A DNA stretch of 64,000 bases from a virus, in IMG/VR virus record IMGVR_UViG_3300045988_110853, positions 132,077 to 196,076 of that record; one strand, given 5' to 3'. Numbering within the stretch: the stretch's first letter is position 1; each line of letters begins with the position of its first letter. Below, piece by piece: positions 8,901-52,524 of this stretch. The position numbers and the translations under genes were made by a program. The notes under the pieces are model-generated. The model saw only the letters and a program-made list of their open reading frames with translations, was not told the DNA's origin and made no database searches.

Positions 8901-9497
8901 TTAGTCCATTTCCGCCCATTGTTTAACTTTTTGGCAGATAGAATTAACAATATTCATATAATCATCGAATGTTTCATTTACCATAATATTACATTTAATA
9001 TTATTCATCTTTTGGAATTGAATTTCATCAGCAGAGTATCTTCTAATAATTTCATCTACATTAGGATTTTCTTCTCTATTTAATTGCCTAATTAAACGAG
9101 TTTTTCCTTTCGCGGTGATATAATATATTTCTAATTCAATTCTATCATCTTCAAGAAGACTCATAATTCCATCAGGATTAAAAACGCCAATATTAATTTT
9201 ATCATTAGATAAACTATCAATACTTGTGCCATAATACCAATTGTTAAAATTGGTGGTTTCTAACATTTTATTTTCATCAATTAATGTTAGAAATTCATCT
9301 TCTAAAACAAAATGATAACTTTCATCTGCTATTTCTTTTTCACGTCTTGGGCGTGTAGTATGGCTTATAATAGGATTTAAATATTTTTCTAAGTGGGAAA
9401 AGATAGCCATCATTAGACTATCTTTTCCAGCCCCAGATTTTCCACATAATGCGATAATTTTATACATCTTCTTCAATTCCTCCTTGATAGCGAGCAT
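8901..9497 (-). CDS. Guanylate-kinase-like (d)NMP kinase.
   Basis: P-loop GKSGAGKDS plus the GMP-kinase signature TTRPRREKEIADESYHFV. Confidence 0.65.
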   Translation of the reverse strand: MLAIKEELKKMYKIIALCGKSGAGKDSLMMAIFSHLEKYLNPIISHTTRPRREKEIADESYHFVLEDEFLTLIDENKMLETTNFNNWYYGTSIDSLSNDKINIGVFNPDGIMSLLEDDRIELEIYYITAKGKTRLIRQLNREENPNVDEIIRRYSADEIQFQKMNNIKCNIMVNETFDDYMNIVNSICQKVKQWAEMD

Positions 9498-12400
9498 CTT
9501 TTAAGATTAAATCTCCATTAGATAAAATTTCATCAATTTTATATAATTGATGTCCTCCAGAAGAAGCATATTTCTTTGACATAAAATTGTCTCCATTGCG
9601 AATACCAGAAACTACAATCATATTTCCACGATTAAACCAAGATTTTTCAACAATATGTTTAGTCCCATCTGCACCACGCTCTGAGATTTGCTTATCGAAC
9701 AAACTAAAATATTCTTTTCTAAACTTTACTTCTACAGGACCAGTAGTAGTAAGAATAGTTACGGTGCTTTTAGTTTTATTTTTTGCTATACAAGTTCCGC
9801 AAATCTTAAATAACTTATAGATATGAATAGTATGATTTCCTTTAGTAAAACTTCTATCAATAATTGGTTCTTCCGGAAGCTTAAAGAAATCTACAAATCC
9901 GTATTTATTGTTATTAATATTATTTAATTCGTGAGTATGATAATAATAACAAAGAACTTCCATTTCCCAAGCAGACAAATTGTTCTTACTTGCGTATTTA
10001 TCCCAATCATCTTTAAATATTTTCATATTTAAATTATTTAGAATTTCATCTTTATTATTTGCTATCCAAGCGCGGAATATATCCATCCATTTTTGATAAA
10101 TGTTATCCCAAATATTTTCGCTTAAATAATAGTCAGTTCCGTCAAATTGAATGTTATTATCTTCTCCAATTTCTACTAAGAAATTAATTGCACGTTCATC
10201 AAGTTGATATAAACCATTATTTCTTGTAGTTTTACAAATTGCTTTTAGATATCTATTAAATTCATAAATGCGACGGGCCATAATTTGATTTTCATTTTCT
10301 TCTGGAAGAAGATCATATTTCATAAGTCCGCCCATATTCTGAAGAGTAATTCTCTTTTTCTTATCGCAAGTTTCCCAAATATACCAAACCATTAATTCTT
10401 TTCTATCCATCATATTGTCAAAGGCGCCTCCTTTGATAAGAGAAATCATAGCTTGTTTACCAGGCTTAATGCGATATAAAAATTCTTTAGGATTTGAATA
10501 AGGACGATTAGCAATAATTGTATTAACCAATTCATCGCCAACATTTAGCATACCTTTTAATCCAAAAAGAATTTTATTATTTTCAATATCAGGAGCAAAC
10601 CCGAATTTAGATTTATTAATATCAGGAAGACCAACTTCAATTCCGGCTTTTTGGATATCGCTAATAGCTTTAGCAATTTTACCATAATCAGTGGCCGCAG
10701 TTTTACGAATCTTACCACTTTTATCAGGAAGGTCTTCAAACGTTACTCCATTTGCTAAATCATCACCCTCGGGCGCATAAATATCTACAATTTCTTCTTC
10801 GCTGTTATCCTCAAGAGAACCACTATTAACAATTAAACAGGCAGTATCCCAATAAATAGGATTAAAATGAATTACTAAGTAAATCATTTGAATTGCTACA
10901 AAAGAGTAAGGAAGAGAGTGGTTGAGACTAAATGCATATCCTAATTGAGGAGCAACCGCAATTTCCCAAAAGTATTCAGCAGATTTTTCATTATCAAACT
11001 TACTAAATACTTGTTCTCTTAATTGTGGGATTTTAGCCATTTGCTTTTTAGCAACAATTTTACGAGCAGTATTTGCTTCACCAAGAGTAAAATGAGCTAC
11101 ATCCATAAGAATTTCCATCATTTGCTCTTGGATAGGGCAACAACCGTAATATTTATCACAATGCTTATGCATCTTATCAATTAATTCTTGCGGAAGATGC
11201 TAAGCTTTCATTTCATTATCAAATACTTCAATACCTGAATGCTGAATACGATAATATCTATCTTGCTGAGATTCTTTTCCTTTTTCAGACATAAGACGCA
11301 TCATAGCATTGGCCGCAGTCATTTCCATAGGGTCTTGAGGTTTAAGACGTTTTGCGATGGCAAGACCAACGCCTGTGGAAAATTGGAATACATCTAACAC
11401 ATCGCCAGCCGCTAGGTGGTCCCAAATTGCTTGGTCGGTTGTATCTATTACTTCTGGATGAATATACTTATTATAAAACTCTCGTAAAGATAATTCTGGA
11501 ATTTGCTTATCTTTTAAAAGTAATTGATAACAGGTAATGATTTTATCAGAAGCTTCAGTTACGAGGAAATCATACTTGGTATCTCCTGCGGCTTCTGCTT
11601 TATGAAGGTCCCAGCAAGTAATCATATCTCCACTAGGAGTTCTCATAAATGATGCGGTATCGAATGGATCATCACCATATAAAATAACACCAGAAGCATG
11701 AGAAGAACGTTTATTAACCATTCCTTCGATATAAATAATAATATCCAAAAGACCAGGATATTGATTTACTTCTCGAATAAATGCTTGAACGGGTTTGCGG
11801 TCTTTTTCTTCATTACCATAAATAACATCGTGAATAGGCCATAAAAATCCACGTTCTTGTGGGATTAATGAAGACATATATTGGGCGTTATCAACATCAA
11901 TTCCTTCTGGGAATTCTTCACTTCTATATCCGCGACAAGCAGTTAAAATACTTTGTTTAGTGCCTTCAGTTCCAAAAGTAGCAACTTGAACTAATCCTAA
12001 TTCTCCACGTTCTTTTCTAATAGCTTTGAAAATTGCGGGACGCTTGCTTGGGGCAAGATCAATATCAATATCTGGTAATTCCGCACGTTCTTTATTTAAG
12101 AATCTCCAATATGGAAGTCCCCAACGAATTGGATCTAGTTGAGTAATACCTAAGAGATAGTTAGATAAAAATCCAGTGGCGGAACCGCGTCCGGGACCTA
12201 CAATACTTCCGCACTCCCAAAATAAATTAATATAATGTTGGAAAGTATTAAAATAAGCAAAAAGACAGTCATCTAATTTTTCACCAATATCTTTTATAAT
12301 ATCAGCTTCAATTTCAAGTCGTTCTAAATAATTTTCATTATAATAAAGTTGTTTTTCTTGTAATGCTTTAATACATTCATTTATCCAATATCTCTCTTGA

Positions 12401-13473
12401 ATATTATCACTATTAATTAAAGAACAAATAATTGGATATTTATCAAACCATTCTGATGGAATAAATCCTTTTTTATAATCTTTTACTTCAACTTTTGGAA
12501 TAATTTGTTTTCTTTCCAGTGAATAAAAAGAAATTTTATTTTGAATTTCTTGAGTATTGTCAAGAATCCAATTTACTAATTCTTTTCCTGTTTTATTACT
12601 TTTATCCCAATCATTAGCATAGGGTTCCATTAATTCAAAAATTTCATCACTTGTCATTAGATAAGTAAATTTATAGAAATCATCAACTTCTCTTTCTCCT
12701 GGTTTAGAAGTAAGATATGCTTTATGAATGGGTCTATCTTCTTTGGTTAAATAGTGCGCGTCTGTTCCAACTACCATTTTTAAATCAAATGCCTTAGCAA
12801 TTTGATAAATTTTATGATTTACCACTATTTGTTCGGCATCTGTAGAAGGCGCGCACTCAAGATAAAAATCTTCTTTTCCAAATACTTTAATACAAAAATT
12901 GATATAATCAATTATTTGATTGTAGTATTTAGTTTGAGTTTCAATATCTTTATTTAATTCAGCTTGAAACATTGGTAAAATACAACTACCAAGTTCTCCG
13001 CCAATACAAGCAGTTGTAGCTATAACGTGCCCTTTATATTGTTCCATTACCATTTCAAGTTCACTCTTTAAGGTAGGAACTCGCTCCATACGCCTATCGA
13101 CATAGCTATGAGTCCAAGCAATAGAACTCAATTCTCTTAATGCTTTATGTCCGATAGCATCTTTAGCGATAAGAATAAAATGGTAATATTTTTGTCCTCT
13201 ATCTCGTGTATCCGTAAGATAAATTTCATTTCCAAGAGCAATAGTAAAATTAGGATTTTCTTCTCTCAATTTTTTCGCAAATTGATTTACTTCCATATGC
13301 GCGGAAAGACATTCGTGGTCTGTAATTGTTATTCCTGATAATCCTAATTCTATTGCTTTATCAATTAGTGCTTGCGGTCTATTAATACAGTCTAGCAAGC
13401 GCAAATTTGAATACATTGTATGATTGTGAATCCCGAAATATGATCTCATTCGCACATTCCTTTCATCTTTCAT
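9460..13473 (-). CDS. dnaE: DNA polymerase III alpha subunit (DnaE-like family C polymerase), about 1337 aa, with one in-frame TAG at 11200-11202.
   Basis: Track ORFs 11200..13473 (PHP domain, GIHNHTMYS...ITDHECLSAHME) and 9460..11172 are in the same frame. They join as ...FDNEMKA[TAG]HLPQELIDKMHKHC.... The combined size matches DnaE. Confidence 0.85.
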
Positions 13474-25926: not shown

Positions 25927-26000
25927 TTTAAAAAGTCTATAACCTTTCTTTATCTTATATAAATATTATATAATATTTATTTAGAAAAATCAAGTTATGA

Positions 26001-29761: not shown

Positions 29762-29805
29762 TATCTTTAAATATATTATAGAAAAATTTTTTAAAAAAAT
29801 CAAGT
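29762..29805 (-). promoter_or_regulatory. Instance of the recurrent sigma70-type promoter, upstream of the ligase gene.
   Basis: Minus-strand TTGATT-N17-TATAAT-like arrangement. Confidence 0.45.
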
Positions 29806-32705: not shown

Positions 32706-32997
32706 ATGATGGTCTCCCTAAAAATTCATTTTCTCCACAATCAATATTAAAAGAAGTATTAGCAAAAATAGTAATTTTATCAATAAAATAATCATTAATA
32801 ATATTTACTCTATTATCTGGAAATAACTTCTGTAATTGTTCGTGAAGTTCTCTACAAGTAATTACATCAATATCTTTATTGACGTGAGCTAAAACAACGT
32901 CATTTTTACAAATAGGAATTATTTCAATAGGTATTCCTTTATAATTACTTACATATCCTTTATCAGTTTTATACATCAATATTGGCCCTTTCTGCAT
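32686..32997 (-). CDS. Hypothetical protein.
   Basis: Track ORF. Confidence 0.3.
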   Translation of the reverse strand: MQKGPILMYKTDKGYVSNYKGIPIEIIPICKNDVVLAHVNKDIDVITCRELHEQLQKLFPDNRVNIINDYFIDKITIFANTSFNIDCGENEFLGRPSYDSDLY

Positions 32998-33181
32998 TTA
33001 ACTCAATGAAAGATTTACGAGGGCCAACTGATTCGCCCATTAAATCCATAAATGTTTTATTAACAAGATTCATATCATCCATTGTAATCTGTTTCAAAGT
33101 GCGAGTTTCTGGATTCATAACTAATTCCATTTCATGAGTATCCATTTCGCCTACGTGTTTCTCCAATATCACTATTGGCAC
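32969..33181 (-). CDS. C-terminal tail of the type II topoisomerase large (GyrB-like) subunit. It is separated from the main ORF by about 950 bp, as a detached exon or a separately translated fragment; the upstream boundary is unresolved.
   Basis: GEMDTHEMELVMNPETRTLKQITMDDMNLVNKTFMDLMGESVGPRKSFIELNAERANIDV aligns with the conserved GyrB C-terminus (YKGLGEMNPEQLWETTMDP...[25 protein letters not shown]). The same frame stays open upstream; a possible internal start MMAVNTLAGAKK is preceded by AAGGTAGG. Confidence 0.65.
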   Translation of the reverse strand: MPIVILEKHVGEMDTHEMELVMNPETRTLKQITMDDMNLVNKTFMDLMGESVGPRKSFIELNAERANIDV

Positions 33182-34138: not shown

Positions 34139-35923
34139 TTACCAATTCGCAACCCCGCCGATCAGCGGAAAAGTAGGTAAGGGCCAGACTTCCTCGTACC
34201 CTTTCATACGGCCTAATTCAAAAGATCGGTTCATAGTTTTTCTGAATGTTTCAAGCGCGGCATCGTCTTTAAGATACTTAATATTTGTGCCCCAGGTAGC
34301 CTTATAAAGAGGGGGAACCGCGGCATAAATATAACCTTTTTCAATTAGCTCAGGCGCAAATTTCCAAATAAATGTAAGGAACAAAATACGAATATGACTT
34401 CCATCAACATCAGCATCCGCAGTAATAATAATTTTACCATAACGTAATTTTGATTCATCAACGATTACTTTACCATCTTTAACTTCAAGACCAAAAGCAT
34501 CAATCATTGCGCTAATTTCTTTATTTCCTAATGCTTTGTGTAGATCTGTTTTCAAAGTATTAAGAATTTTACCTCTTACAGGTAAAACTGCTTGAGTATT
34601 GCGATTGCGAGCTTCCTTAGTGGGGCCTTCTGCGGAACGTCCCTCAACAATAAAAATTTCACATTCGCTTCTATTCTTACTATTGGCATCACTTAATGTG
34701 CCAGGTAGAATAGTTCTTTTTTTGGTATCAACCTTACGAACAGTTTCTTTAGCCTTTTTCGCCTTTTCACGAGCGGCGCGCGCCAACATTGCTTTATCTA
34801 CAATAGCTTTAGCATCTTTTGGATTATTATCAAGCCAAACTTTTAAGTCTTTTGAAACAAGACGTTGAACGATAGTTCTTGCTTCACTACTGGATAAAAC
34901 ATCTTTAGTTTGGCCGGAAAAAACTGGATCAGGCATAATAAATGAAAGAACAAGACTTAATCCTTCTTTAAGCTCCTCGCCTGTAATATTGGCGTCTTTT
35001 TCTTTTAAAAGGCCCTTATCACGAGCATATTCATTAATAGAAGTAGTAAGTGCTGTTCTAAAACCTGTCAAATGAGTTCCACCACTATTAGGAATTGAAT
35101 TAGTATAAAGCTTATAAGTATCGCTATAAGTATCATTATATTCCATAGCAATCTTTACACCAATTCTATCTTCAATATTTTCAGTATAAAAAATTGAAGT
35201 AAGAGAAGTTTTATTACTATTTAAATCTTTAATATAATCAAGAATACCATTTTTTGAAGTAATTTCTTCTTCTGGTTTATCAAGATAGGTAAAATGGAAT
35301 ACCATACCAGGAGAAAGATAAGCCAATTCTTGAATCTGTTTTCTTAAAGCATCATAATCAAGAATAATACCTTCTTTAAAAATGCTTTCATCTGGCAAAA
35401 ATTTAACCCAAGTTCCGGTTTCTTTGCCAGTCCATTTTTCTTCTTGATAATCTTTTAATTTTCCTTTTTCAAAAGATGCAACCGCATGCTTACCATCACG
35501 GAAAGATGCTACTTGAAAATAACGAGAAAGAGCATTTGTGGCTTTTGCACCAACACCATTCATACCGCCAGATGTGTTATATCCAGTTTTTCCATTACTA
35601 TCAAATTTTGCACCTGTATGAAGTTTAGTATAAACATTTACTAATGTTTCACTACCGTCTTTTGCTTTTCCAAAAGGAACACCACGTCCATTGTCGCGGA
35701 TTTCAACATAACCATCTTTAGATACTGAGATATCACAACGAGTGCAATGTCCGTTTAAATATTCATCAACAGCATTTGAAATAATTTCAAGAGTAATATG
35801 TCTAACTCCATCGGGTCCAGTAGAACCAATATACATACCTGGTCTAAGGCGAATGGCTTCTATACCTTCAAGAGTTTTAATATCTTTTACTCCATAAGAA
35901 TCTAAATTAATTGTCGTTGCCAT
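34139..35923 (-). CDS. Type II DNA topoisomerase large subunit (GyrB-like ATPase plus TOPRIM; T4 gp39-like), lacking the extreme C-terminal tail that sits at 32969..33181.
   Basis: GHKL ATPase motif (RHITLEIISNAVDEY), TOPRIM (CEIFIVEGRSAEG), and DADVDGSHIRILFLTF...PPLYK. Ends ...RMKGYEEVWPLPTFPLIGGVANW at TAA 34139, just where GyrB proteins continue with KG-LGEMNPEQLW. Confidence 0.85.
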   Translation of the reverse strand: MATTINLDSYGVKDIKTLEGIEAIRLRPGMYIGSTGPDGVRHITLEIISNAVDEYLNGHCTRCDISVSKDGYVEIRDNGRGVPFGKAKDGSETLVNVYTKLHTGAKFDSNGKTGYNTSGGMNGVGAKATNALSRYFQVASFRDGKHAVASFEKGKLKDYQEEKWTGKETGTWVKFLPDESIFKEGIILDYDALRKQIQELAYLSPGMVFHFTYLDKPEEEITSKNGILDYIKDLNSNKTSLTSIFYTENIEDRIGVKIAMEYNDTYSDTYKLYTNSIPNSGGTHLTGFRTALTTSINEYARDKGLLKEKDANITGEELKEGLSLVLSFIMPDPVFSGQTKDVLSSSEARTIVQRLVSKDLKVWLDNNPKDAKAIVDKAMLARAAREKAKKAKETVRKVDTKKRTILPGTLSDANSKNRSECEIFIVEGRSAEGPTKEARNRNTQAVLPVRGKILNTLKTDLHKALGNKEISAMIDAFGLEVKDGKVIVDESKLRYGKIIITADADVDGSHIRILFLTFIWKFAPELIEKGYIYAAVPPLYKATWGTNIKYLKDDAALETFRKTMNRSFELGRMKGYEEVWPLPTFPLIGGVANW

Positions 35924-42207: not shown

Positions 42208-42912
42208 TTAACTCTTTAAAATTTTAGAATATAAAGTTTTTAAAGCAGTGATTGCTTTTTGCATTTCAGACTTTTTACAAGTATCTCCACTATAAGAAGT
42301 GGATTGCATTTTAGAAATATTTGTAAATATTTCATTTTTTAAAGTTGTATTAACTTTACTATTGGAAGAAACGTTTGTAGATAGAGTACTATAACCACGT
42401 CTAGATAATTCTTTGTTTAACATAGTATAAATATTAGCAACATCAGCCGCATATAAAACAATTCTTAAACTAATAGAATTATAAAGATTTACATTTGCCG
42501 AAGTAGAACAACCATTATCACAAGCTCCAGAACAATTGCCGGTGCAAGCAGAACAATCATTTCTACAACTAGCACTACATCCAGAGCATTGACCGGAACA
42601 GCTACCAGTACAGTCAGTACGACAGGCAGCACTACATCCAGAACAACCTCCAGAACAATCGCCAGTACAGTCAGTGCTACAGGAGCCACCACATCCAGAG
42701 CATTTTCCTTCACAATCGCCCGAACAGCTATTACTACAGGCTCCGCCACAGCCAGAGCAACTTCCATCACAGTCTCCTCTGCAACTTCCTTGACAAACAC
42801 TTGTTCCACAAGTTTCACATAGAGAACAATTTCCACCACATCCATGGTCGCATCCATTACTACAACTTACAAAACAAGATCCAACACATCCAGTTGTAGA
42901 ACAATTAGCCAT
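42208..42912 (-). CDS. Cysteine-rich repeat protein: about 45 Cys in C-S-G-x-C-type repeats over the N-terminal 135 aa, with a C-terminal 100-aa Cys-poor domain.
   Basis: Strong RBS AAGGAGG; repetitive GC-richer DNA at 42490-42900 encoding CSGC/CTGS repeats. Confidence 0.55.
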   Translation of the reverse strand: MANCSTTGCVGSCFVSCSNGCDHGCGGNCSLCETCGTSVCQGSCRGDCDGSCSGCGGACSNSCSGDCEGKCSGCGGSCSTDCTGDCSGGCSGCSAACRTDCTGSCSGQCSGCSASCRNDCSACTGNCSGACDNGCSTSANVNLYNSISLRIVLYAADVANIYTMLNKELSRRGYSTLSTNVSSNSKVNTTLKNEIFTNISKMQSTSYSGDTCKKSEMQKAITALKTLYSKILKS

Positions 42913-45293: not shown

Positions 45294-45854
45294 TCATTCA
45301 TCAAGAAATGACTTACATTCCTCAACTTTTGCTTTCATAGCATCAATGATTACATCAAGATTAATAGGATACCCATGATGAGAATCAACGCCTACATGAT
45401 ACATATAAGGTCGATCTTCAAAGAAATTAGTGGTTTGATGAGTATGACCGTAAAGATTTAAGGTCATCTGATGAAGACTTTCTCTTTCAAGATTACCTGT
45501 CATACAAGGAAAATGAGTCATAAAGAAATGATATTTACGATAATTCAACATAATCGCCCAACTCATTTCTACGACATTAGGCAAATCCGCGTAAAGTTTC
45601 TGTCGAGTGGCTGTATCGTGATTACCAAATACAATATGAAATTTACCCTTAAGGCGCTTAATATATTCAATATTAGAAGTGTCGCCAAGCATTAAATCGC
45701 CAAGAATATAAACTTCATCTTCATCAGAAACAATACTATTCCATTTTTCAATATAGTCTTCATTCATTTCCTCAACTGAGGAATAACCACGAGCTTTCCA
45801 GATAAATTCTCTATCATGCCCGAAGTGCATATCACTGGTTAAAAAGATTGCCAT
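45294..45854 (-). CDS. Calcineurin-like metallophosphoesterase (YfcE-like). Candidate RNA 3'-end healing phosphatase; partner of the adjacent kinase.
   Basis: SDMHFGH, GDLMLGD, GNHD motifs. Confidence 0.65.
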   Translation of the reverse strand: MAIFLTSDMHFGHDREFIWKARGYSSVEEMNEDYIEKWNSIVSDEDEVYILGDLMLGDTSNIEYIKRLKGKFHIVFGNHDTATRQKLYADLPNVVEMSWAIMLNYRKYHFFMTHFPCMTGNLERESLHQMTLNLYGHTHQTTNFFEDRPYMYHVGVDSHHGYPINLDVIIDAMKAKVEECKSFLDE

Positions 45855-46369
45855 GTGTGAATCACTTCTCCTTTTTCATTAACCTCTTGGATAAGATGGT
45901 ATTTAATATATTCTTTAAAAGTAGGTGGAGTAAAGGAATTTGCCATACTGCGAATTACATCTTCTGGAACTTGCGCTCGACCTTCACGCTGTTTATTACG
46001 CTCGATACAAACTTCAACAGGAACATTAAAATAAATAACATTCACATTGAGATTTTTATATCCTTTTGCGTTAATTGCTTTAAGCAATTTCTTGCGAGAA
46101 CCAGGTCCAAGATGAGTGGCATCCGCATACACATCATCATAATCTCTTAAAGAAAGAATGATTGCTTCAATAAAAGCGTGCCATACACTTTCCTCTTTAG
46201 CAAAATAACTTTCATCATCATTTAGCATTTGAAAACGAATAGTATCACGAGAAACAACACAACCACACTGGGGCCAACGATTTTTAAGCCAAGTAGATTT
46301 ACCCGAGCCTGGTATTCCGGACATAATCCAAAGATTCTTTTGCTTCATCTTTATACACCCCATTCTCAA
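45839..46369 (-). CDS. T4 Pnk-like polynucleotide 5'-kinase (kinase domain only). The real start is probably the internal MKQKNLW.
   Basis: SGIPGSGKSTWLKNRW...VVSRDTIRFQ and RNKQREGRAQVPEDVIRSMANSF closely parallel T4 Pnk (GCPGSGKSTWAREF...[30 protein letters not shown]). Confidence 0.7.
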   Translation of the reverse strand: MRMGCIKMKQKNLWIMSGIPGSGKSTWLKNRWPQCGCVVSRDTIRFQMLNDDESYFAKEESVWHAFIEAIILSLRDYDDVYADATHLGPGSRKKLLKAINAKGYKNLNVNVIYFNVPVEVCIERNKQREGRAQVPEDVIRSMANSFTPPTFKEYIKYHLIQEVNEKGEVIHTWQSF

Positions 46370-46769: not shown

Positions 46770-46822
46770 TTTCTTAACTTTCTATATATATTATATATTA
46801 TTTTTTTATAAAAATCAATAAA
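46770..46822 (-). promoter_or_regulatory. Instance of the recurrent promoter motif.
   Basis: ctatatatattatatattatttttttataaaaatcaataaag. Confidence 0.4.
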
Positions 46823-47116: not shown

Positions 47117-47836
47117 TTACATAGTAAATTCAATAGTCTCAAATGTATCAAGGTCAATGAGACAAGTTTTTCCAGTAGCGAAAGAACCATTATCAATATC
47201 GCATTTATGTCCGTCGCAATACCAAAAATGATTCATATTTTCTAAGTCAAAATCTTTATAACTTTTTCCTACCGCGATATAGGGATCATAATTAGGCATC
47301 AGCAGAAAAGGAGTATGACCGTGAATACAGAAAGTGCGGTTTGCTGTTTTATCTTCAGGCCACGGGTCATAGAAATGATCTCGGCTCCAAATCAAATCAT
47401 AACGATTAGGCATATCTCCAAAAGTAAACCCAGCATGAGAAAGAAGAATAATTTGATTATTCTTATTCATATAGTTTTCTCGAAGAGAAAGTTTAGCGAG
47501 CTCTTGATACCATCCAAGATTAGCATGTTCTCCAATTTGCCAATCTTCAAAAGTTTTTGCTCCACCATTGTTACAAAGAAGAGCATAAGCACGACTAAAA
47601 TTTTCATCTTTAAGATAATCTTTCATAGCTTCAAATAGCATATCTTCGTGATTACCTTTAAGATAAATAACTCTCTTATCGGCGATAGCATCTTTAATAA
47701 TTTCCCAGCCATCATTTCCGCGGTCAGCGCAATCGCCTAGACAATAAAGAGTATCACTTGGGTCGAGGTATTTCATAATTTGATCCCAAAGAGGTTTCAT
47801 ACCATGAATATCACTTACCGCATATGTTTTATTCAT
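47117..47836 (-). CDS. PPP-family (lambda-phosphatase/ApaH-like) binuclear metallophosphatase.
   Basis: DIHG, GDCADRG, GNHE motifs. Confidence 0.65.
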   Translation of the reverse strand: MNKTYAVSDIHGMKPLWDQIMKYLDPSDTLYCLGDCADRGNDGWEIIKDAIADKRVIYLKGNHEDMLFEAMKDYLKDENFSRAYALLCNNGGAKTFEDWQIGEHANLGWYQELAKLSLRENYMNKNNQIILLSHAGFTFGDMPNRYDLIWSRDHFYDPWPEDKTANRTFCIHGHTPFLLMPNYDPYIAVGKSYKDFDLENMNHFWYCDGHKCDIDNGSFATGKTCLIDLDTFETIEFTM

Positions 47837-47844
47837 AAAATATC

Positions 47845-47895
47845 AATCCTTTCTTAATTTATATATATATTATAATATATTTTTATAAAAAAATC
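47845..47895 (-). promoter_or_regulatory. Instance of the recurrent promoter motif.
   Basis: tatatatattataatatatttttataaaaaaatcaag. Confidence 0.4.
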
Positions 47896-47907
47896 AAGAG
47901 TGAGAAT

Positions 47908-48126
47908 TTATCCCACTCTTGTAAGCTTCATAAATAAATTACAAATGTTTAATCCTAAGCAACTTGCCAACATCCAAATATTCCAATAAAACATTTTATC
48001 AATGTCTTTATACTTTTTAATAAAAGTATATTGAATCCATTTTATAAAACAAAAACACCAAATAGCAACACAAATCCAAAACAAAGCTAAAAATAAATAA
48101 GATAAAGTTAAAAATAAATAATACAT
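47908..48126 (-). CDS. Small membrane protein.
   Basis: Track ORF; hydrophobic. Confidence 0.25.
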   Translation of the reverse strand: MYYLFLTLSYLFLALFWICVAIWCFCFIKWIQYTFIKKYKDIDKMFYWNIWMLASCLGLNICNLFMKLTRVG

Positions 48127-48570
48127 TTAATTTCCCTCTTTTAATTCTTTTCTTACTCGCATTAGAATTTTTCCAAGTTTGTTATGTGCCATAGTGTCTT
48201 GGCATCGAACGCAATGACATACGCCCCATGTATTATCATGCCAGGTATTTCCTTCTTCAAGCCAGGCATCCTCGGTCTTTTCAAGGGCAGTCCGCAAGTT
48301 TGGATTTTGTATAAATTTAGCTTTTACACCTTTATACATAATATCTTCTTTAACATCTTCCCAATCCTTACGAATTACACAATGTCTTCCTAATCTCTTG
48401 GATTTACCGGGCGTAGAAGCAAGTCTAATTTCTTCTGCATCACCAGGGTTTGCGGCTTTCATTGACTGGAAATAGTTTTCTACTGTAAGATATCTTTTTC
48501 CTTCTACTGTAATTGGAGAATAAAAAAAGTTGCTTAAAAAAGCATAATCTCCTTCAAATTTATCAATCAT
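48127..48570 (-). CDS. NADAR (YbiA-like, DUF1768) domain protein.
   Basis: YAFLSNFFYSPITVEGKRYLTVENYFQSMKA..., typical of NADAR. Confidence 0.6.
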   Translation of the reverse strand: MIDKFEGDYAFLSNFFYSPITVEGKRYLTVENYFQSMKAANPGDAEEIRLASTPGKSKRLGRHCVIRKDWEDVKEDIMYKGVKAKFIQNPNLRTALEKTEDAWLEEGNTWHDNTWGVCHCVRCQDTMAHNKLGKILMRVRKELKEGN

Positions 48571-48798
48571 TTAAATCTCCTCAAAGTCCTGAAGAGCCAA
48601 TTCGGCTAAGTCATCAAAACCAAAATCTTCATTTTCATCAATATTGACACCATACATTTCAGCGCCTTCTTCAAGATATTGTCTTCGGCCTTCCATATAC
48701 CACGACCAATTATCGACGCCGTCTCCTTCAAGGACATTAAGCACACTTTCAGCTTTAAGAAGTTCAAGAAGTCTTTCTTTAGAAATAATATAATTCAT
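48571..48798 (-). CDS. Small acidic hypothetical protein.
   Basis: Track ORF. Confidence 0.25.
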   Translation of the reverse strand: MNYIISKERLLELLKAESVLNVLEGDGVDNWSWYMEGRRQYLEEGAEMYGVNIDENEDFGFDDLAELALQDFEEI

Positions 48799-48804
48799 AA
48801 TAAT

Positions 48805-48860
48805 ATCACCTTTCTTTTTATATAAATATTATATAATAATTTTTTAAAAAAATCAAAAAT
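48805..48860 (-). promoter_or_regulatory. Instance of the recurrent promoter motif.
   Basis: tttatataaatattatataataattttttaaaaaaatcaaaaatg. Confidence 0.4.
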
Positions 48861-48871
48861 GGAGATAAGAA

Positions 48872-49378
48872 TTACTCCTTATCTCCCTTTTCTTGAATAA
48901 AAGTCTTAATTGGCTCACTTACAAAGCAACAAATATCACACGCAACTTTTACTGCTTCTTCTGGATCATGTTTTAAATATAATGCGGTTGTCGCATATGG
49001 AGCGCCCGCACCAATAGCCATATAATCTTTAATCTCTCTTACCATAAATTTACAAGTATGAAAAAGATGTCCTTTATAAGCAATAAGAAATTCATTCTTT
49101 AAAAATCCATCACCAATAAGAGTATTTTTCCATTTTGAAAATTCAATAATGTAATTAAGAATTTCTCGTTCATTAGCTTCAACCGGCTGATGATTTTCCA
49201 TATAAAGCCACATTAGACTTTGTTCGTCGCCGTAGCCCACTCCACCGAGAATCATATCATTAATCTTAGCAATTTTAGCAAAATTAATGTTAGGTTCTTT
49301 TTCATAACCATTAGTAAGAATACTATCAGCACTCATTACAATTCTATCATCATAAACTTTAGCCGCAACAACGCTCAT
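48872..49378 (-). CDS. Hypothetical protein with possible Ntn-hydrolase/proteasome-like features.
   Basis: Weak resemblance only (MAIGAGAPYATTALYL). Confidence 0.25.
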   Translation of the reverse strand: MSVVAAKVYDDRIVMSADSILTNGYEKEPNINFAKIAKINDMILGGVGYGDEQSLMWLYMENHQPVEANEREILNYIIEFSKWKNTLIGDGFLKNEFLIAYKGHLFHTCKFMVREIKDYMAIGAGAPYATTALYLKHDPEEAVKVACDICCFVSEPIKTFIQEKGDKE

Positions 49379-49978
49379 TTAATCCTCCAACTGACAAATA
49401 TAAACTTCTTCATGATGGAGGATTTTTCTAATCATTAATAGAATAATATCCCAATCTCCTCCACCAAGGCCACATCCAATTTTATAAGGAAAAGCAATTG
49501 GGATATAGGCAGGAACTAATGTATTTAGATTTTCTAAGCAATTAGCAAATGCTTCATAATTAGTATACCGACGCGGTCCATATCCATAATCATATTGAGC
49601 GAATAAACTTGCTACTCTATGACCGTCTACCGTGGTAGTGCACGCAACTGTACCAAGTAAAATATCATCAGGTGGATTTTCTAAATGAGCGACTTGTGCT
49701 TCTGCATTTTCAATGGTTTTTTTATAATCCTCATATACTTCAGGCCAACGAGCACGGATTTGTTTGGCAATACCCGCACCCATAACGCCTTGGCAATTTA
49801 CCTGATGACAAATTACAATGTTAGGGGATAAATCTAATAGACTTTTATTTTTATAATAAGTAATATTTTTAACCACTAACTTTATCTCCGTTATGATAAA
49901 AATTACAAAATCTTGCGTCGCCACCGCAAGAACAAATTTCGCGTTCTTTAGTGCCCCAACATTCCGCAGTTTTATCAT
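49379..49978 (-). CDS. Macro domain protein (ADP-ribose binding/hydrolase). The start is uncertain; the N-terminal about 50 aa of the track ORF may not be translated.
   Basis: NIVICHQVNCQGVMGAGIAKQI matches the macro NAAN...GGGV-type motif; IAFPYKIGCGLGGGDW. Confidence 0.6.
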   Translation of the reverse strand: MIKLRNVGALKNAKFVLAVATQDFVIFIITEIKLVVKNITYYKNKSLLDLSPNIVICHQVNCQGVMGAGIAKQIRARWPEVYEDYKKTIENAEAQVAHLENPPDDILLGTVACTTTVDGHRVASLFAQYDYGYGPRRYTNYEAFANCLENLNTLVPAYIPIAFPYKIGCGLGGGDWDIILLMIRKILHHEEVYICQLED

Positions 49979-50270
49979 CTCTTAAATGATAACATTCGCA
50001 CTTTTTAACTACTTCAGTAATTGGAACATCTTTGCTTTTGGATTTTTCTTTCTTTTCATAATGGCCGGGAACCCAAATAAGATCTTCGCCATTAACTTCT
50101 TCCCAAGCATCAGCCATTTGTTGAACGCACTCAAGACAATACTGCCAATAAGAATAACATTGATCTCGTGTTAAATCTTCACTTACTTTATCCCAAAGAG
50201 CGATAGGAATTCGCTCTCTAATTTCATATGTATCAGTTTTAGCTTGACTCACAGCTTCATTATCAATCAT
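49869..50270 (-). CDS. Cys-rich putative zinc-binding protein.
   Basis: Track ORF; several CxxC/CxC pairs. Confidence 0.3.
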   Translation of the reverse strand: MIDNEAVSQAKTDTYEIRERIPIALWDKVSEDLTRDQCYSYWQYCLECVQQMADAWEEVNGEDLIWVPGHYEKKEKSKSKDVPITEVVKKCECYHLRDDKTAECWGTKEREICSCGGDARFCNFYHNGDKVSG

Positions 50271-50455
50271 AGATAATCCTCCAATACATATTCAATCTTA
50301 TCCAATCCTTTAAATTCTTTAAGAATTGTAATAACTCTTAAAATAGTTAAAGCGTCATTTAAATCATCCGATAAACAGATTGGGGACTCCCACTCATTGG
50401 CGGAAGCCCACTCTGCGTCTAATTCTAAGTTTCTAATTAATTTATTAATTTTCAT
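50267..50455 (-). CDS. Hypothetical small protein.
   Basis: Track ORF. Confidence 0.25.
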   Translation of the reverse strand: MKINKLIRNLELDAEWASANEWESPICLSDDLNDALTILRVITILKEFKGLDKIEYVLEDYL

Positions 50456-51818
50456 TATTGACCTCCTCAGCCTCTTCCATATCAGGCGCGGTCTCTTCTG
50501 CTTTTACCAAGCCTTCAAGACACTTAAAGGCAAAATTCTTATGCTTATAAGCACAGAACTTCGGACGATTAAGGATACGAATTACAACGCCTTCGCGGAC
50601 ATGAGTCTTACCGATCGGGTCAGGACCATCATAATACTGCTCAGCGATTTCTTTAACCTGTTCGCCAGCAGTCATACCTGCGTCATTCCAATTAGTGGTG
50701 TCATCAAGAAAACCTCTCCACAGAACAGGGACACACTTACAGCCCATCTGCTCGCAACGATAACGCATGAAATCAGGAGTATATTCAACAACATCCCCAT
50801 CTTCATTAGTCATAGTCATACGATAGACATAGAAATCAGACTTGGGAAGCACATCATAGCTACCATCACCATAGGTATAATAACCAGTGCAAGAACAACC
50901 ATAAGAGAAGGTAGTAGTTTCACCATATTTCTTAAGGAAATCCTTATCATTCAGCTTTCTATTAGAAGCAGAGGACATGATAGGCATACCCTCATCGGTA
51001 AAACCAACAACCTCATAGTAGACTTCTTCACCCTTATGGAGCTTACCCTCAAAGAAATCTGCGTGCTTCTTACGGAACATATTAGAACCATAGAAGCCAC
51101 CCTCCCAGTCATTCAGCACAGTGCGACGAGTGCCAGATACATATCCATATTCATAAATGGGAGTACCATCACGACGCATAATTCTATCCAAAAGAGTTCT
51201 CTTATAACCCTTAAACATAGGAAGATAACCGGTGCGCTGAGAAGTGCCATGCATCTTCAAAGTGATTTCAATAAGGTCATTCGGCTTAAAAGCATCAAGA
51301 TTGTAAGCCAACTGCTCCGTATCAGCATGCTCGATAAACAGAGGAGCAATAGGAACTTTCTTCTTACGAACATGATTTCCTTCACTTACCTGGCCCTGAC
51401 GATTCTGACGCATAGGAATATATTTCTTACAAATTTCGTGGCCGTTCAAAGTAGTGAAAGCAAAACCCTCGGTCAGCTCGCTAAGAAGAACCCCAGTATA
51501 AGAAACGCAATTAAGATGGAGAAAAAGACCATCACTCTTCTCTCCGCGCAAACGGATAGTGGTAATATTACGCTTCATGGGGTCCATATAACCGCCAATG
51601 CTCTTACCATTTTCATCTTTCTTACGCAAAAGATTATTGATTTCCGCGAATTCAGGACTTACCTGACCGTCAGTAGGAAAATAAATACCAAGTTCATCAA
51701 CTTCATAAGAAGTATCAACGCACACAGTATTACCGAAACAGTCACCGAGCATCAACCGATCGGCATTCGGGTGCTTTCGCAAATTCTTGATTTTACAAAC
51801 ATACGCATTATAAGACAT
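50445..51818 (-). CDS. Putative ATP-dependent RNA ligase with an N-terminal tRNA-binding (Myf/EMAPII-like) OB domain; GC-rich.
   Basis: N-terminal VCKIKNLRKHPNADRLMLGD matches the tRNA-binding-domain signature (KHPNADKL). Candidate nucleotidyltransferase motif I ITLKMHGTS (K-x-H-G, as in Rnl5/DraRnl-type ligases). Linked to kinase and phosphoesterase genes. Confidence 0.5.
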   Translation of the reverse strand: MSYNAYVCKIKNLRKHPNADRLMLGDCFGNTVCVDTSYEVDELGIYFPTDGQVSPEFAEINNLLRKKDENGKSIGGYMDPMKRNITTIRLRGEKSDGLFLHLNCVSYTGVLLSELTEGFAFTTLNGHEICKKYIPMRQNRQGQVSEGNHVRKKKVPIAPLFIEHADTEQLAYNLDAFKPNDLIEITLKMHGTSQRTGYLPMFKGYKRTLLDRIMRRDGTPIYEYGYVSGTRRTVLNDWEGGFYGSNMFRKKHADFFEGKLHKGEEVYYEVVGFTDEGMPIMSSASNRKLNDKDFLKKYGETTTFSYGCSCTGYYTYGDGSYDVLPKSDFYVYRMTMTNEDGDVVEYTPDFMRYRCEQMGCKCVPVLWRGFLDDTTNWNDAGMTAGEQVKEIAEQYYDGPDPIGKTHVREGVVIRILNRPKFCAYKHKNFAFKCLEGLVKAEETAPDMEEAEEVNNEN

Positions 51819-52199: not shown

Positions 52200-52248
52200 T
52201 AACTTTCTATAAATATTATATTATATTTTTTATATAAAATCAATAAAG
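52200..52248 (-). promoter_or_regulatory. Instance of the recurrent promoter motif.
   Basis: ctataaatattatattatattttttatataaaatcaataaag. Confidence 0.4.
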
Positions 52249-52524
52249 TTAAAAACAACCAGTTTTTTTGTATTTGAAATTGGTTTTCGTATCTAAATGA
52301 GTTATTAAAAGAATATCTCCTTGTTTTTGATAAACAACTCGATAATGACCTAATCTTCTGCGATAAGTATTTGATTGATCGCGTTTTTTATCAACATTTT
52401 TAACCTTCTCGTCTACTTCTGGCGATAAGGTTAAAAATGTTCTTTCTAAATTTCTTTTAGTTTTTTCATTGGCTTTATCATAAAACTTTTTAGCCGATTT
52501 TGATAATATAATTGAATAACACAT
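52249..52524 (-). CDS. RelE/ParE-like toxin-fold protein.
   Basis: YRRRLGHYRVVYQKQGDILLITHLD resembles the RelE/ParE C-terminal signature. Confidence 0.4.
   Translation of the reverse strand: MCYSIILSKSAKKFYDKANEKTKRNLERTFLTLSPEVDEKVKNVDKKRDQSNTYRRRLGHYRVVYQKQGDILLITHLDTKTNFKYKKTGCF

Follow-up and report, generated by a model that had tools for sequence, protein, structure and literature searches.

This analysis concerns two genes for putative ADP-ribose-releasing enzymes, a NADAR gene and a macro-domain gene, in a 64,000-nucleotide stretch of the IMG/VR virus record IMGVR_UViG_3300045988_110853 (positions 132,077 to 196,076 of that record). The whole stretch is hereafter called the window, and all coordinates refer to it. 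An earlier note on this DNA had described an adjacent macro and NADAR gene pair at 48127-49978 as likely counter-defence against ADP-ribosylating host systems, and the peptides it quoted for both genes were found in the translations at those positions, on the minus strand. The NADAR gene (48127..48570, minus strand) encodes a 147-amino-acid protein classified by profiles, fold, residues and homology as YbiA type and AdfN-like. The macro gene (49379..49876, minus strand, GTG start) encodes a 165-amino-acid protein with a TARG1/DarG/Poa1p-like (ALC1-like) fold of the Gln type. Profile searches with the Macro and NADAR models, which the note had proposed, placed both proteins above the cut-off, the macro protein marginally. 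The NADAR assignment is, as judged from the sequence comparisons, well supported. For the pair as a whole we tentatively favor, as a reading whose chances fall a little short of even, a mixed kit in which the NADAR would be an AdfN-like base-ADP-ribose glycohydrolase and the macro protein an Adpp-like hydrolase of soluble ADP-ribose derivatives.

The NADAR/YbiA-like assignment made in the earlier note was borne out by profiles, fold and catalytic residues alike. The protein scored 99.7 bits with PF08719 (cut-off 35.1, E=2.8e-28) and 98.7 bits with the NCBIfam model TIGR02464 (cut-off 73.7), and its sequence matches in the PDB included YbiA (9.5e-20) and the Phytophthora NADAR (PnNADAR, 2.4e-7). 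Its AlphaFold2 (AF2) model, with a predicted local distance difference test score (pLDDT) of 95.8, was matched by Foldseek to YbiA 2B3W (TM-score, TMq, 0.83; E=1.2e-10) and to PnNADAR 8BAU (TMq 0.81). The ADP-ribose-binding and catalytic residues of PnNADAR are E43, K50, R79, W89, R93, E125, D130 and W133 (PMC11543638), and their equivalents in the window protein are E31, K38, R62, W70, K74 (an exchange of Arg to Lys), E106, D112 and W115, the residues of this catalytic set being invariant or at least 90% conserved among 69 homologs. The position of E125 defines the subfamilies, with Glu in the YbiA subfamily, Asp in DarG1/BC4488 and His in the T4-type phage NADARs (PMC11543638); the corresponding E106, located in the motif LEEGN, is invariant in the family and aligns with the Glu of ‘YEAS’ in 8BAU and of ‘LVE’ in YbiA. 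The window gene encodes a complete YbiA-type NADAR, with the fold of YbiA and PnNADAR and 37% identity to YbiA, under purifying selection (dN/dS 0.08-0.15 in the lineage of the window). YbiA itself differs in being a cellular enzyme of a LexA-controlled operon that is also an N-glycosidase of riboflavin intermediates (PMC11125620), whereas the window NADAR is a phage protein with a Cys-rich insertion. A DarG1 antitoxin NADAR of the BC4488 clade was considered and ruled out, the subfamily-defining residue being Glu rather than Asp, the N-terminal DNA-binding extension of DarG1-type NADARs being absent (the conserved core begins at residue 2-8), and no ADP-ribosyltransferase (ART) gene having been found in the window with Pfam.

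A tblastn search found the NADAR family in 513 phage records. Among the carriers is the Escherichia phage IrisVonRoten, which is the BASEL phage Bas32, as its locus tags read bas32_. The window NADAR shares 43% identity with bas32_0066 (AdfN-Bas32; E=3e-38, 144 of 147 residues aligned); both are stand-alone phage NADARs of about 147-149 amino acids with the same catalytic Glu/Lys pair and the same Glu, Asp and Trp of the distal-ribose site. Their contexts differ, the window gene lying in a block with gp5.9-like, NinI and polynucleotide kinase (PNK) genes and the Bas32 gene among genes of nucleotide metabolism. In cells, DarT1 is neutralized by AdfN-Bas32, and growth of three phages on DarTG1 hosts is restored, whereas DarTG2 is unaffected by it (PMC11825919). 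ADP-ribose linked to guanosine was removed in vitro by all tested NADAR subtypes (PMC11125620), NADARs also remove it from RNA (PMC11833690), and YbiA-type NADARs remove ADP-ribose from cytidine as well (PMC12945103). From the conserved residues, the homology to AdfN-Bas32 and the activities of the tested NADARs we infer, on good grounds, that the window NADAR acts on base-linked ADP-ribose. The family of the window NADAR also has a conserved six-residue CxCxxC insertion (WGVCHCVRCQD, residues 118-123), which is missing in YbiA and AdfN-Bas32 and may form a small metal site or a substrate-selecting loop.

For the second gene, the macro domain recognized in the earlier note was confirmed by PF01661 and by the fold, and its start had to be revised. 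The 199-amino-acid open reading frame (ORF) at 49379-49978 shares 110 nucleotides with the upstream ORF, and its first 34 residues are unconserved; the segment encoding them (49877..49978, minus strand) overlaps the end of the upstream 133-amino-acid gene (49869-50270). Homologs are 150-170 amino acids long, lack a counterpart of the 34 residues, and begin either at the position of GTG 49876 or at an ATG five codons upstream (ACG in the window), and a GGAG is located 9 nucleotides upstream of GTG 49876. Based on the overlap, the lengths and starts of the homologs and the spacing of the GGAG, the macro gene most likely occupies 49379-49876, starting at GTG 49876 and not at 49978, and translation of the macro protein probably does not extend over 49877..49978. 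A programmed frameshift fusing the 133-amino-acid ORF to the macro gene was set aside, because the homologs start at the GTG or at the ATG five codons upstream.

The match of the macro protein to PF01661 was marginal (23.2 bits, cut-off 22), and it matched phrog_335 at 1.5e-42, with 1005 homologs. Its AF2 model (pLDDT 91.9) gave Foldseek probabilities of 1.0 to TARG1, DarG, Poa1p, a Bacteroides protein and SCO6735, the best TM-score being that of Poa1p (6LFR; TMq 0.75, E=8.9e-8). A profile of 68 macro homologs searched against the PDB ranked Bacteroides BT1257 structures first (1.5e-16), followed by DarG (1e-14), SCO6735 (5e-11), TARG1 (4e-9) and Poa1p (1e-8). H24, N27, Q94, G138, G139 and W142 are invariant in the family. 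Q94 aligns with Gln85 of SCO6735, which superposes on the catalytic Lys of DarG (K80) and TARG1 (K84) (PMC9411070), and the position of TARG1 Asp125 is occupied by Gly. H24, N27 and Q94, all invariant or nearly so, are equivalent to His24, Asn27 and Gln85 of SCO6735, and H24 also aligns with Poa1p H23, the residue altered in the H23A mutant 6LFS. Lys34 and Lys89 of SCO6735, required for its activity on DNA (PMC9411070), correspond to A34, a position with Ser or Ala across the family, and to G98. The DarG equivalog model NF048014 gave 47.5 bits against a cut-off of 250 and covered residues 23-63 only (41 residues). The protein is a single 165-amino-acid domain without a DarT-binding domain, and a Pfam search of all window ORFs yielded no ART gene that could represent a darT neighbor. 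The earlier note had tied its proposal to profile thresholds and to the catalytic residues of the hydrolase subfamilies; the profiles are passed, the DarG/TARG1-type Lys is absent and the SCO6735-type Gln is present. Since the catalytic Lys is absent and the score lies far below the DarG cut-off, the macro protein is, on the sequence evidence, not a DarG- or TARG1-type enzyme. Its dN/dS in the lineage of the window is 0.09-0.15.

Among the characterized proteins the closest to the window macro is Adpp of Vibrio phage Gary (KNV71_gp137; 30% identity, E=2e-14, hhalign 98.8%, full length), a stand-alone Poa1p-like phage macro protein of about 160 amino acids. The two share the motif HQxNC, Gln at the Lys position and the motif IGCGLxGGDW. 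The match to AdfM of PhiKZ (gp104) was lower (25% identity, E=2e-9, hhalign 97.5%). DarG2 and AdfM belong to the same macro class with the same overall fold, and their N-terminal GVMGxGIA loop is very similar; the catalytic Lys is kept in them (FPTK motif), whereas the window protein has Gln and no DarT-binding domain. SCO6735 and BT1257, which gave the best PDB profile matches, share with it the Gln at the Lys position, the His and Asn of the first loop and the motif RIGCGLAGG-W, at an identity of about 21-22%; unlike the window macro, they are cellular proteins with a long mobile loop, and K34 and K89 of SCO6735 are unconserved in it. Two further indicators were discarded: pI and net charge were uninformative as a proxy for DNA binding (pI 5.5 for the window macro, 5.1 for the DNA-active AdfM), and AdfB of ICP1 was rejected as an analog because it appears to bind DarT and not to hydrolyze (PMC11481870). 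Weighing the Gary Adpp match above that of AdfM, the operon context described below and the fold class, we consider an Adpp-like hydrolase of ADP-ribose derivatives more likely, at the level of sequence and structure comparison, than a DarT2 antidote.

NARP1 (Adps and Namat), a phage pathway that rebuilds NAD+ from ADP-ribose, is recognized by the combination of a Prs-like and a NAMPT-like gene. The Poa1p-like macro protein Adpp, present in 15% of NARP1 operons, dephosphorylates ADP-ribose-1''-phosphate, which is the product of RES-domain aRES defence proteins and cannot be used by NARP1 (bioRxiv 10.64898/2026.01.28.702374). NARP3, a PnuC/NadR system (PMC13464706), is irrelevant to the macro gene. 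Homologs of the window macro occupy a position in Adps/Namat operons equivalent to that of Adpp. In all three sampled long contigs with macro proteins 45-50% identical to that of the window, isochorismatase, Prs-like, NAMPT-like, macro and NAD synthase genes follow one another in this order, which puts the macro gene between the NAMPT-like and NAD synthase genes. We then surveyed 80 IMG/VR loci with a homologous macro, comprising 12 close relatives and 68 others. The 12 close relatives share the order macro, HslV-like, gp5.9-like, NADAR, NinI, PNK and phosphoesterase. At the 68 other loci (33-47% identical macro proteins) a Namat-like gene lies directly upstream on the same strand in 51, NadE occurs in 53, an Adps-like gene in 46 and an isochorismatase gene in 47; 18 of the 32 clusters (80% identity) into which these macro proteins fall have a Namat-like gene.

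A sister lineage (L026) encodes RNA ligase, HslV-like and NADAR proteins that are 73%, 68% and 58% identical to those of the window. Its locus runs RNA ligase, HslV-like, isochorismatase, Adps-like, Namat-like, Macro, NadE, HNH, NADAR, NinI, PNK, phosphoesterase and Band_7, which is the order of the window plus four NAD+ genes. An extended NAD+ operon consisting of isochorismatase (nicotinamidase-like), Adps-like, Namat-like, Macro and NAD synthase genes occurs in many related contigs, with the NADAR gene inside or beside it (for example L026, 7016-12198; also L008, L009 and L010); in the L219 group the positions are Namat 8095, Macro 9588, NADAR 10001 and NadE 10416. The order there differs from that of Gary, the relatives having Adps, Namat, Macro, NadE and Gary having Adps, Adpp, Namat. 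The pairing of nicotinamidase and NadE suggests that the route passes by way of nicotinic acid and deamido-NAD; no literature linking NARP1 with NadE or with a nicotinamidase (PncA) was found. When IMG/VR was searched with the Namat of L026, a search in which only close Namat relatives are detectable, no contig of a close relative of the window appeared among the 80 of 136 loci that were listed. The macro and NADAR genes of the window's lineage persist under purifying selection without NAD+ genes at the locus.

The linkage of the macro and NADAR genes is not due to chance, as indicated by the synteny in the 12 relatives and by the proximity of the two genes in further clusters. They lie within 1.5 kb of each other in 5-6 further homolog clusters (80% identity). 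Counted from the NADAR side, a macro gene is found within 1.5 kb in 7 of 35 clusters (80% identity), the lineage of the window included, and NAD+ genes accompany all of these seven except the window's lineage. At 73 NADAR loci (44-58% identity) a homologous macro occurs within 10 kb in 37 and a Namat-like gene in 32, one group of loci being ordered Namat, Macro, NADAR, NadE. Often, too, the NinI, PNK and phosphoesterase block follows a NADAR gene at loci that lack a macro gene. That large phages carry Macro and NADAR together, close to genes of RNA repair and NAD+ salvage and to early genes, has been on record since 2022 (PMC9503650).

The two genes are nevertheless not adjacent as the earlier note had it: an HslV-like and a gp5.9-like gene lie between them, and they are assigned to two transcription units. 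Directly downstream of the macro gene is the gene of a 168-amino-acid HslV-like protein of the Ntn-hydrolase family (48872..49378, minus strand; phrog_1040 at 2.6e-20, with a weak full-length HslV match, E=0.1). It is syntenic in the relatives and shows the strongest constraint in the block (dN/dS 0.02-0.04), and in the sister lineage it stays linked to the RNA ligase and the NAD+ region. It is followed by the gene of a 75-amino-acid T7 gp5.9-like RecBCD inhibitor (48571..48798, minus strand; PF25708 36.5 bits, cut-off 24.5; phrog_6234 at 1e-11), which is absent from the sister lineage. The gene directly after NADAR (47908..48126, minus strand) encodes a 72-amino-acid hydrophobic protein without a match to any Pfam or PHROG family, and an ORF of 62-65 amino acids is found at its position in relatives.

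The assignment to transcription units is based on a promoter-like motif, TTGATT-N17-TATAAT, of which the window contains 10 copies, all on the minus (coding) strand, against 0.19 expected by chance (25965-25993, 29775-29803, 46790-46818, 47869-47897, 48828-48856, 52215-52243, 56435-56463, 59054-59082, 60735-60763 and 62634-62662). The spacer is A/T-rich and near constant, and the nearly invariant element reads TTGATTTTT(T/A)TA(A/T)AAAAA...TATAAT. This element is probably a class of phage promoter, its copies partitioning the region into short transcription units. Three copies flank the genes discussed here, and two of them are directly preceded by terminator-like hairpins with a T-run. Because such a terminator (48861..48886, minus strand) and the promoter motif at 48828..48856 (minus strand) lie between the macro and NADAR genes, at 48886-48828, the two would belong to neighboring units, defined here by consensus matches and not by measured transcripts. 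The first predicted unit would start at the motif at 52215..52243 (minus strand) and comprise a 119-amino-acid gene, the RNA ligase, a 62-amino-acid and the 133-amino-acid gene, the macro gene and, as its last member, the HslV-like gene. The second would comprise the gp5.9-like, NADAR and 72-amino-acid hydrophobic protein genes and end at a hairpin with T-run at 47895..47921 (minus strand), which overlaps the motif at 47869-47897; the third is predicted to begin at the NinI-like phosphatase. A 91-amino-acid ORF (52249-52524, minus strand) just upstream of the promoter of the first unit showed a weak match to a ParE toxin (PF05016, 21.9 bits, under the cut-off), and a relative has the same weak match.

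The window comes from an uncultured phage with low GC and a large genome of at least about 200 kb, as indicated by an 831-amino-acid protein about 40% identical to proteins of huge uncultured phages and by the contigs of the 12 close relatives in IMG/VR, which are 113-197 kb long. The GC content is about 0.26-0.41, mostly near 0.32, and the minus strand holds almost all genes. When the segment from 47 to 52 kb of the window was compared by megablast with 50,697 phage records, nothing matched; relatives are detectable at the protein level only. Replication genes occupy the first half of the window and include a split PolIII-alpha-like polymerase, primase, helicase, topoisomerase II, ATP-dependent ligase, anaerobic ribonucleotide reductase and dUTPase. 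The polymerase is contained in two ORFs (11200-13473 and 9460-11172). A separate 70-amino-acid ORF (32969-33181, minus strand) encodes the GyrB C-terminal domain (PF00986); it follows the main GyrB-like ORF (34139-35923, minus strand) at a distance of about 1 kb that is occupied by small ORFs, an arrangement that may reflect a split or intron-interrupted topoisomerase gene. A 234-amino-acid protein (42208-42912, minus strand) consists in its N-terminal two thirds of an extremely Cys-rich repeat (CSGC/CxGxC) and has no Pfam match.

An RNA-centered region spans about 45 kb to 63 kb of the window and surrounds the macro and NADAR genes. It includes three metallophosphoesterases (45294-45854; NinI-like, 47117-47836; 52534-53316), a PNK-like kinase (45839-46369), a 457-amino-acid RNA ligase (50445..51818, minus strand; phrog_968 at 2e-64; PF09414 and PF21189 both under their cut-offs, TIGR02306 weak), an RlaP-like nucleotidyltransferase (53510-54316), a cREC domain (54931-55251) and three tRNAs. 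The 831-amino-acid protein (56519-59014, minus strand) is vault-MVP-like, its orthologs having Pfam MVP_shoulder/Vault_3 matches, and its neighbor (59132-60697, minus strand) carries DUF2828 and DUF7788 and belongs to phrog_850, annotated as ‘RNA-binding protein’; the two could form a ribonucleoprotein-like pair beside the tRNAs and RNA-repair genes.

The general idea of the earlier note, that of counter-defence enzymes directed at ADP-ribose conjugates and encoded beside RNA-repair genes, is retained in the reading that we favor. The two proteins would be stand-alone ADP-ribose-releasing enzymes of the NAD+/ADP-ribose counter-defence kit of the phage, expressed from two neighboring promoter-driven units together with RNA-repair and anti-RecBCD genes. 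What the comparisons establish is the identity of the domains, their fold and conserved residues, the synteny, the associations with operons and the purifying selection; the substrates and targets that would go with them are as follows. The NADAR would be a YbiA-type N-glycosidase that cleaves ADP-ribose from guanine, possibly cytosine, bases of DNA or RNA and would undo DarT1-type modification of phage DNA, as AdfN proteins do. The macro protein would be Adpp-like and convert ADP-ribose-1''-phosphate, or a similar 1''-substituted soluble ADP-ribose, to plain ADP-ribose, its substrate being supplied by non-canonical NADase defences such as RES-domain aRES. In sister phages, the operon of isochorismatase, Adps, Namat, Macro and NadE would rebuild NAD+ from the ADP-ribose released, and in the lineage of the window both hydrolases would act without a locally encoded NARP1.

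Several observations weigh against this reading. Searches of the 64-kb window (tblastn; Pfam on ORFs) detected neither Adps nor Namat, NadE or isochorismatase genes, and none of them lies within 10 kb of the macro gene in the 12 close relatives; an Adpp in the window's lineage would lack its known partners unless they are encoded elsewhere in the genome. The window macro family forms a subfamily separate from Adpp in a neighbor-joining tree, in which all characterized reference proteins fall outside this family and the window clade stands beside the NARP1-associated L026/L027; the deep branching order of this tree is unreliable and was not used to decide between Adpp and DarG. SCO6735, which has the same type of Gln, cleaves thymidine-linked ADP-ribose on DNA (PMC9411070). 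Finally, the NADARs of T4 and YbiA were active in vitro but gave no rescue of cells from DarT1 in one study (PMC11125620).

That both enzymes reverse DarT-type ADP-ribosylation of nucleic acids, together covering both DarTG classes, is a possibility to be taken seriously although we regard it as rather unlikely. The macro protein would then be an orphan DarG2, or an AdfM- or SCO6735-like hydrolase of thymidine- or uracil-linked ADP-ribose, and the NADAR an orphan DarG1 or an AdfN-like hydrolase of guanine-linked ADP-ribose. For the NADAR, the homology to AdfN-Bas32 and the full catalytic set serve this explanation equally well, and the proposal of DarT-type reversal made in the earlier note stands for this gene. 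The macro part is weaker. Its fold is nearest to TARG1, DarG, Poa1p and SCO6735, and reversal of thymidine ADP-ribosylation has been proposed as a unifying activity of this macro class, in which SCO6735 works with Gln85 and loses its activity in Q85A or Q85E (PMC9411070); the window family has the invariant Gln together with H24 and N27, TARG1-like macro proteins also reverse uracil ADP-ribosylation on RNA (PMC13036486), and the phage macro AdfM counters DarTG2 (PMC13309987). However, the absence of Lys at the DarG K80/TARG1 K84 position, the replacement of SCO6735 K34 and K89, the low and short DarG equivalog match, an identity to AdfM lower than to Adpp, and a dominant family context of NAD+ reconstitution and not of DNA metabolism all speak against it. 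The RNA-centered surroundings raise the housekeeping explanation that the macro protein is a Poa1p equivalent clearing ADP-ribose-1''-phosphate after Tpt1/KptA has removed the 2'-phosphate from repaired tRNA, with the NADAR processing a related NAD+-derived by-product, both in the service of the RNA ligase, kinase and phosphoesterase genes. Such an association was proposed in PMC9503650, the RNA ligase lies in the predicted transcription unit of the macro gene among the repair-gene neighbors listed above, Poa1p gave the best TM-score, and within 10 kb of the 73 NADAR loci NinI-like genes occur in 17, PNK-like genes in 21 and metallophosphoesterase-like genes in 29. We nevertheless consider this explanation very unlikely: KptA/Tpt1, 2H phosphoesterase, sirtuin, ART, Nudix and NAMPT domains were absent from all window ORFs (Pfam on concatenated ORFs), the ligase is of the type sealing 3'-OH and 5'-phosphate ends (PF09414, TIGR02306), healing by kinase and phosphoesterase would leave no 2'-phosphate, to judge from the known Pnkp/Rnl pathways, and in the relatives the macro gene is tied to Namat and NadE and not to the ligase.

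The operon data could also be taken to mean that both enzymes are only small-molecule feeders of NAD+ reconstitution, the NADAR freeing ADP-ribose not from DNA but from a soluble N-glycosidic conjugate such as an immune signal or a disguised NAD+ breakdown product. In several clusters the NADAR gene indeed lies inside the operon (Namat, Macro, NADAR, NadE) or directly after NadE, small-molecule targets of phage Macro and NADAR proteins have been argued for (PMC9503650), and YbiA itself is a small-molecule N-glycosidase by the name of TIGR02464. Yet a Namat-like gene is nearby in only 9 of 35 NADAR clusters, the closest tested relative, AdfN-Bas32, acts against the DNA-modifying DarT1 (PMC11825919), and no candidate soluble substrate is known, so that this explanation appears unlikely. 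Similarly improbable in our view is the idea that the macro and NADAR genes constitute a self-sufficient ADP-ribose-unmasking module that has outlived the loss of NARP1 in this lineage, in which the macro protein would remove 1''-O-linked groups such as phosphate and the NADAR N-glycosidically linked groups. If true, such a module would neutralize defences that convert NAD+ to non-canonical ADP-ribose derivatives. The NADAR would then count as a second accessory enzyme of extended NARP1 operons, one not described until now, and a defence yet to be discovered would be indicated, in which ADP-ribose is concealed as an N-glycoside of a base or small molecule.

The counter-defence roles of phage NADARs (AdfN, 2025) and phage macro proteins (AdfM and Adpp, 2026) were established recently (PMC11825919, PMC13309987, bioRxiv 10.64898/2026.01.28.702374). 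The locus described here contributes a divergent pair of such genes, encoded by a large phage that is uncultured; the window genes are otherwise ordinary members of known families. Two aspects may be new: the retention of an Adpp-like macro without NARP1, and the extended operon of isochorismatase, Adps, Namat, Macro, (NADAR) and NadE in related loci. A macro family whose usual place is in NAD+ reconstitution operons can be retained, under purifying selection, where these operons are missing from the locus, which raises the question of the substrate that the protein meets in that setting. The recurrent place of the NADAR gene in operons of isochorismatase, Adps, Namat, Macro and NadE offers a testable lead toward a new accessory step in the rebuilding of NAD+ by phages.

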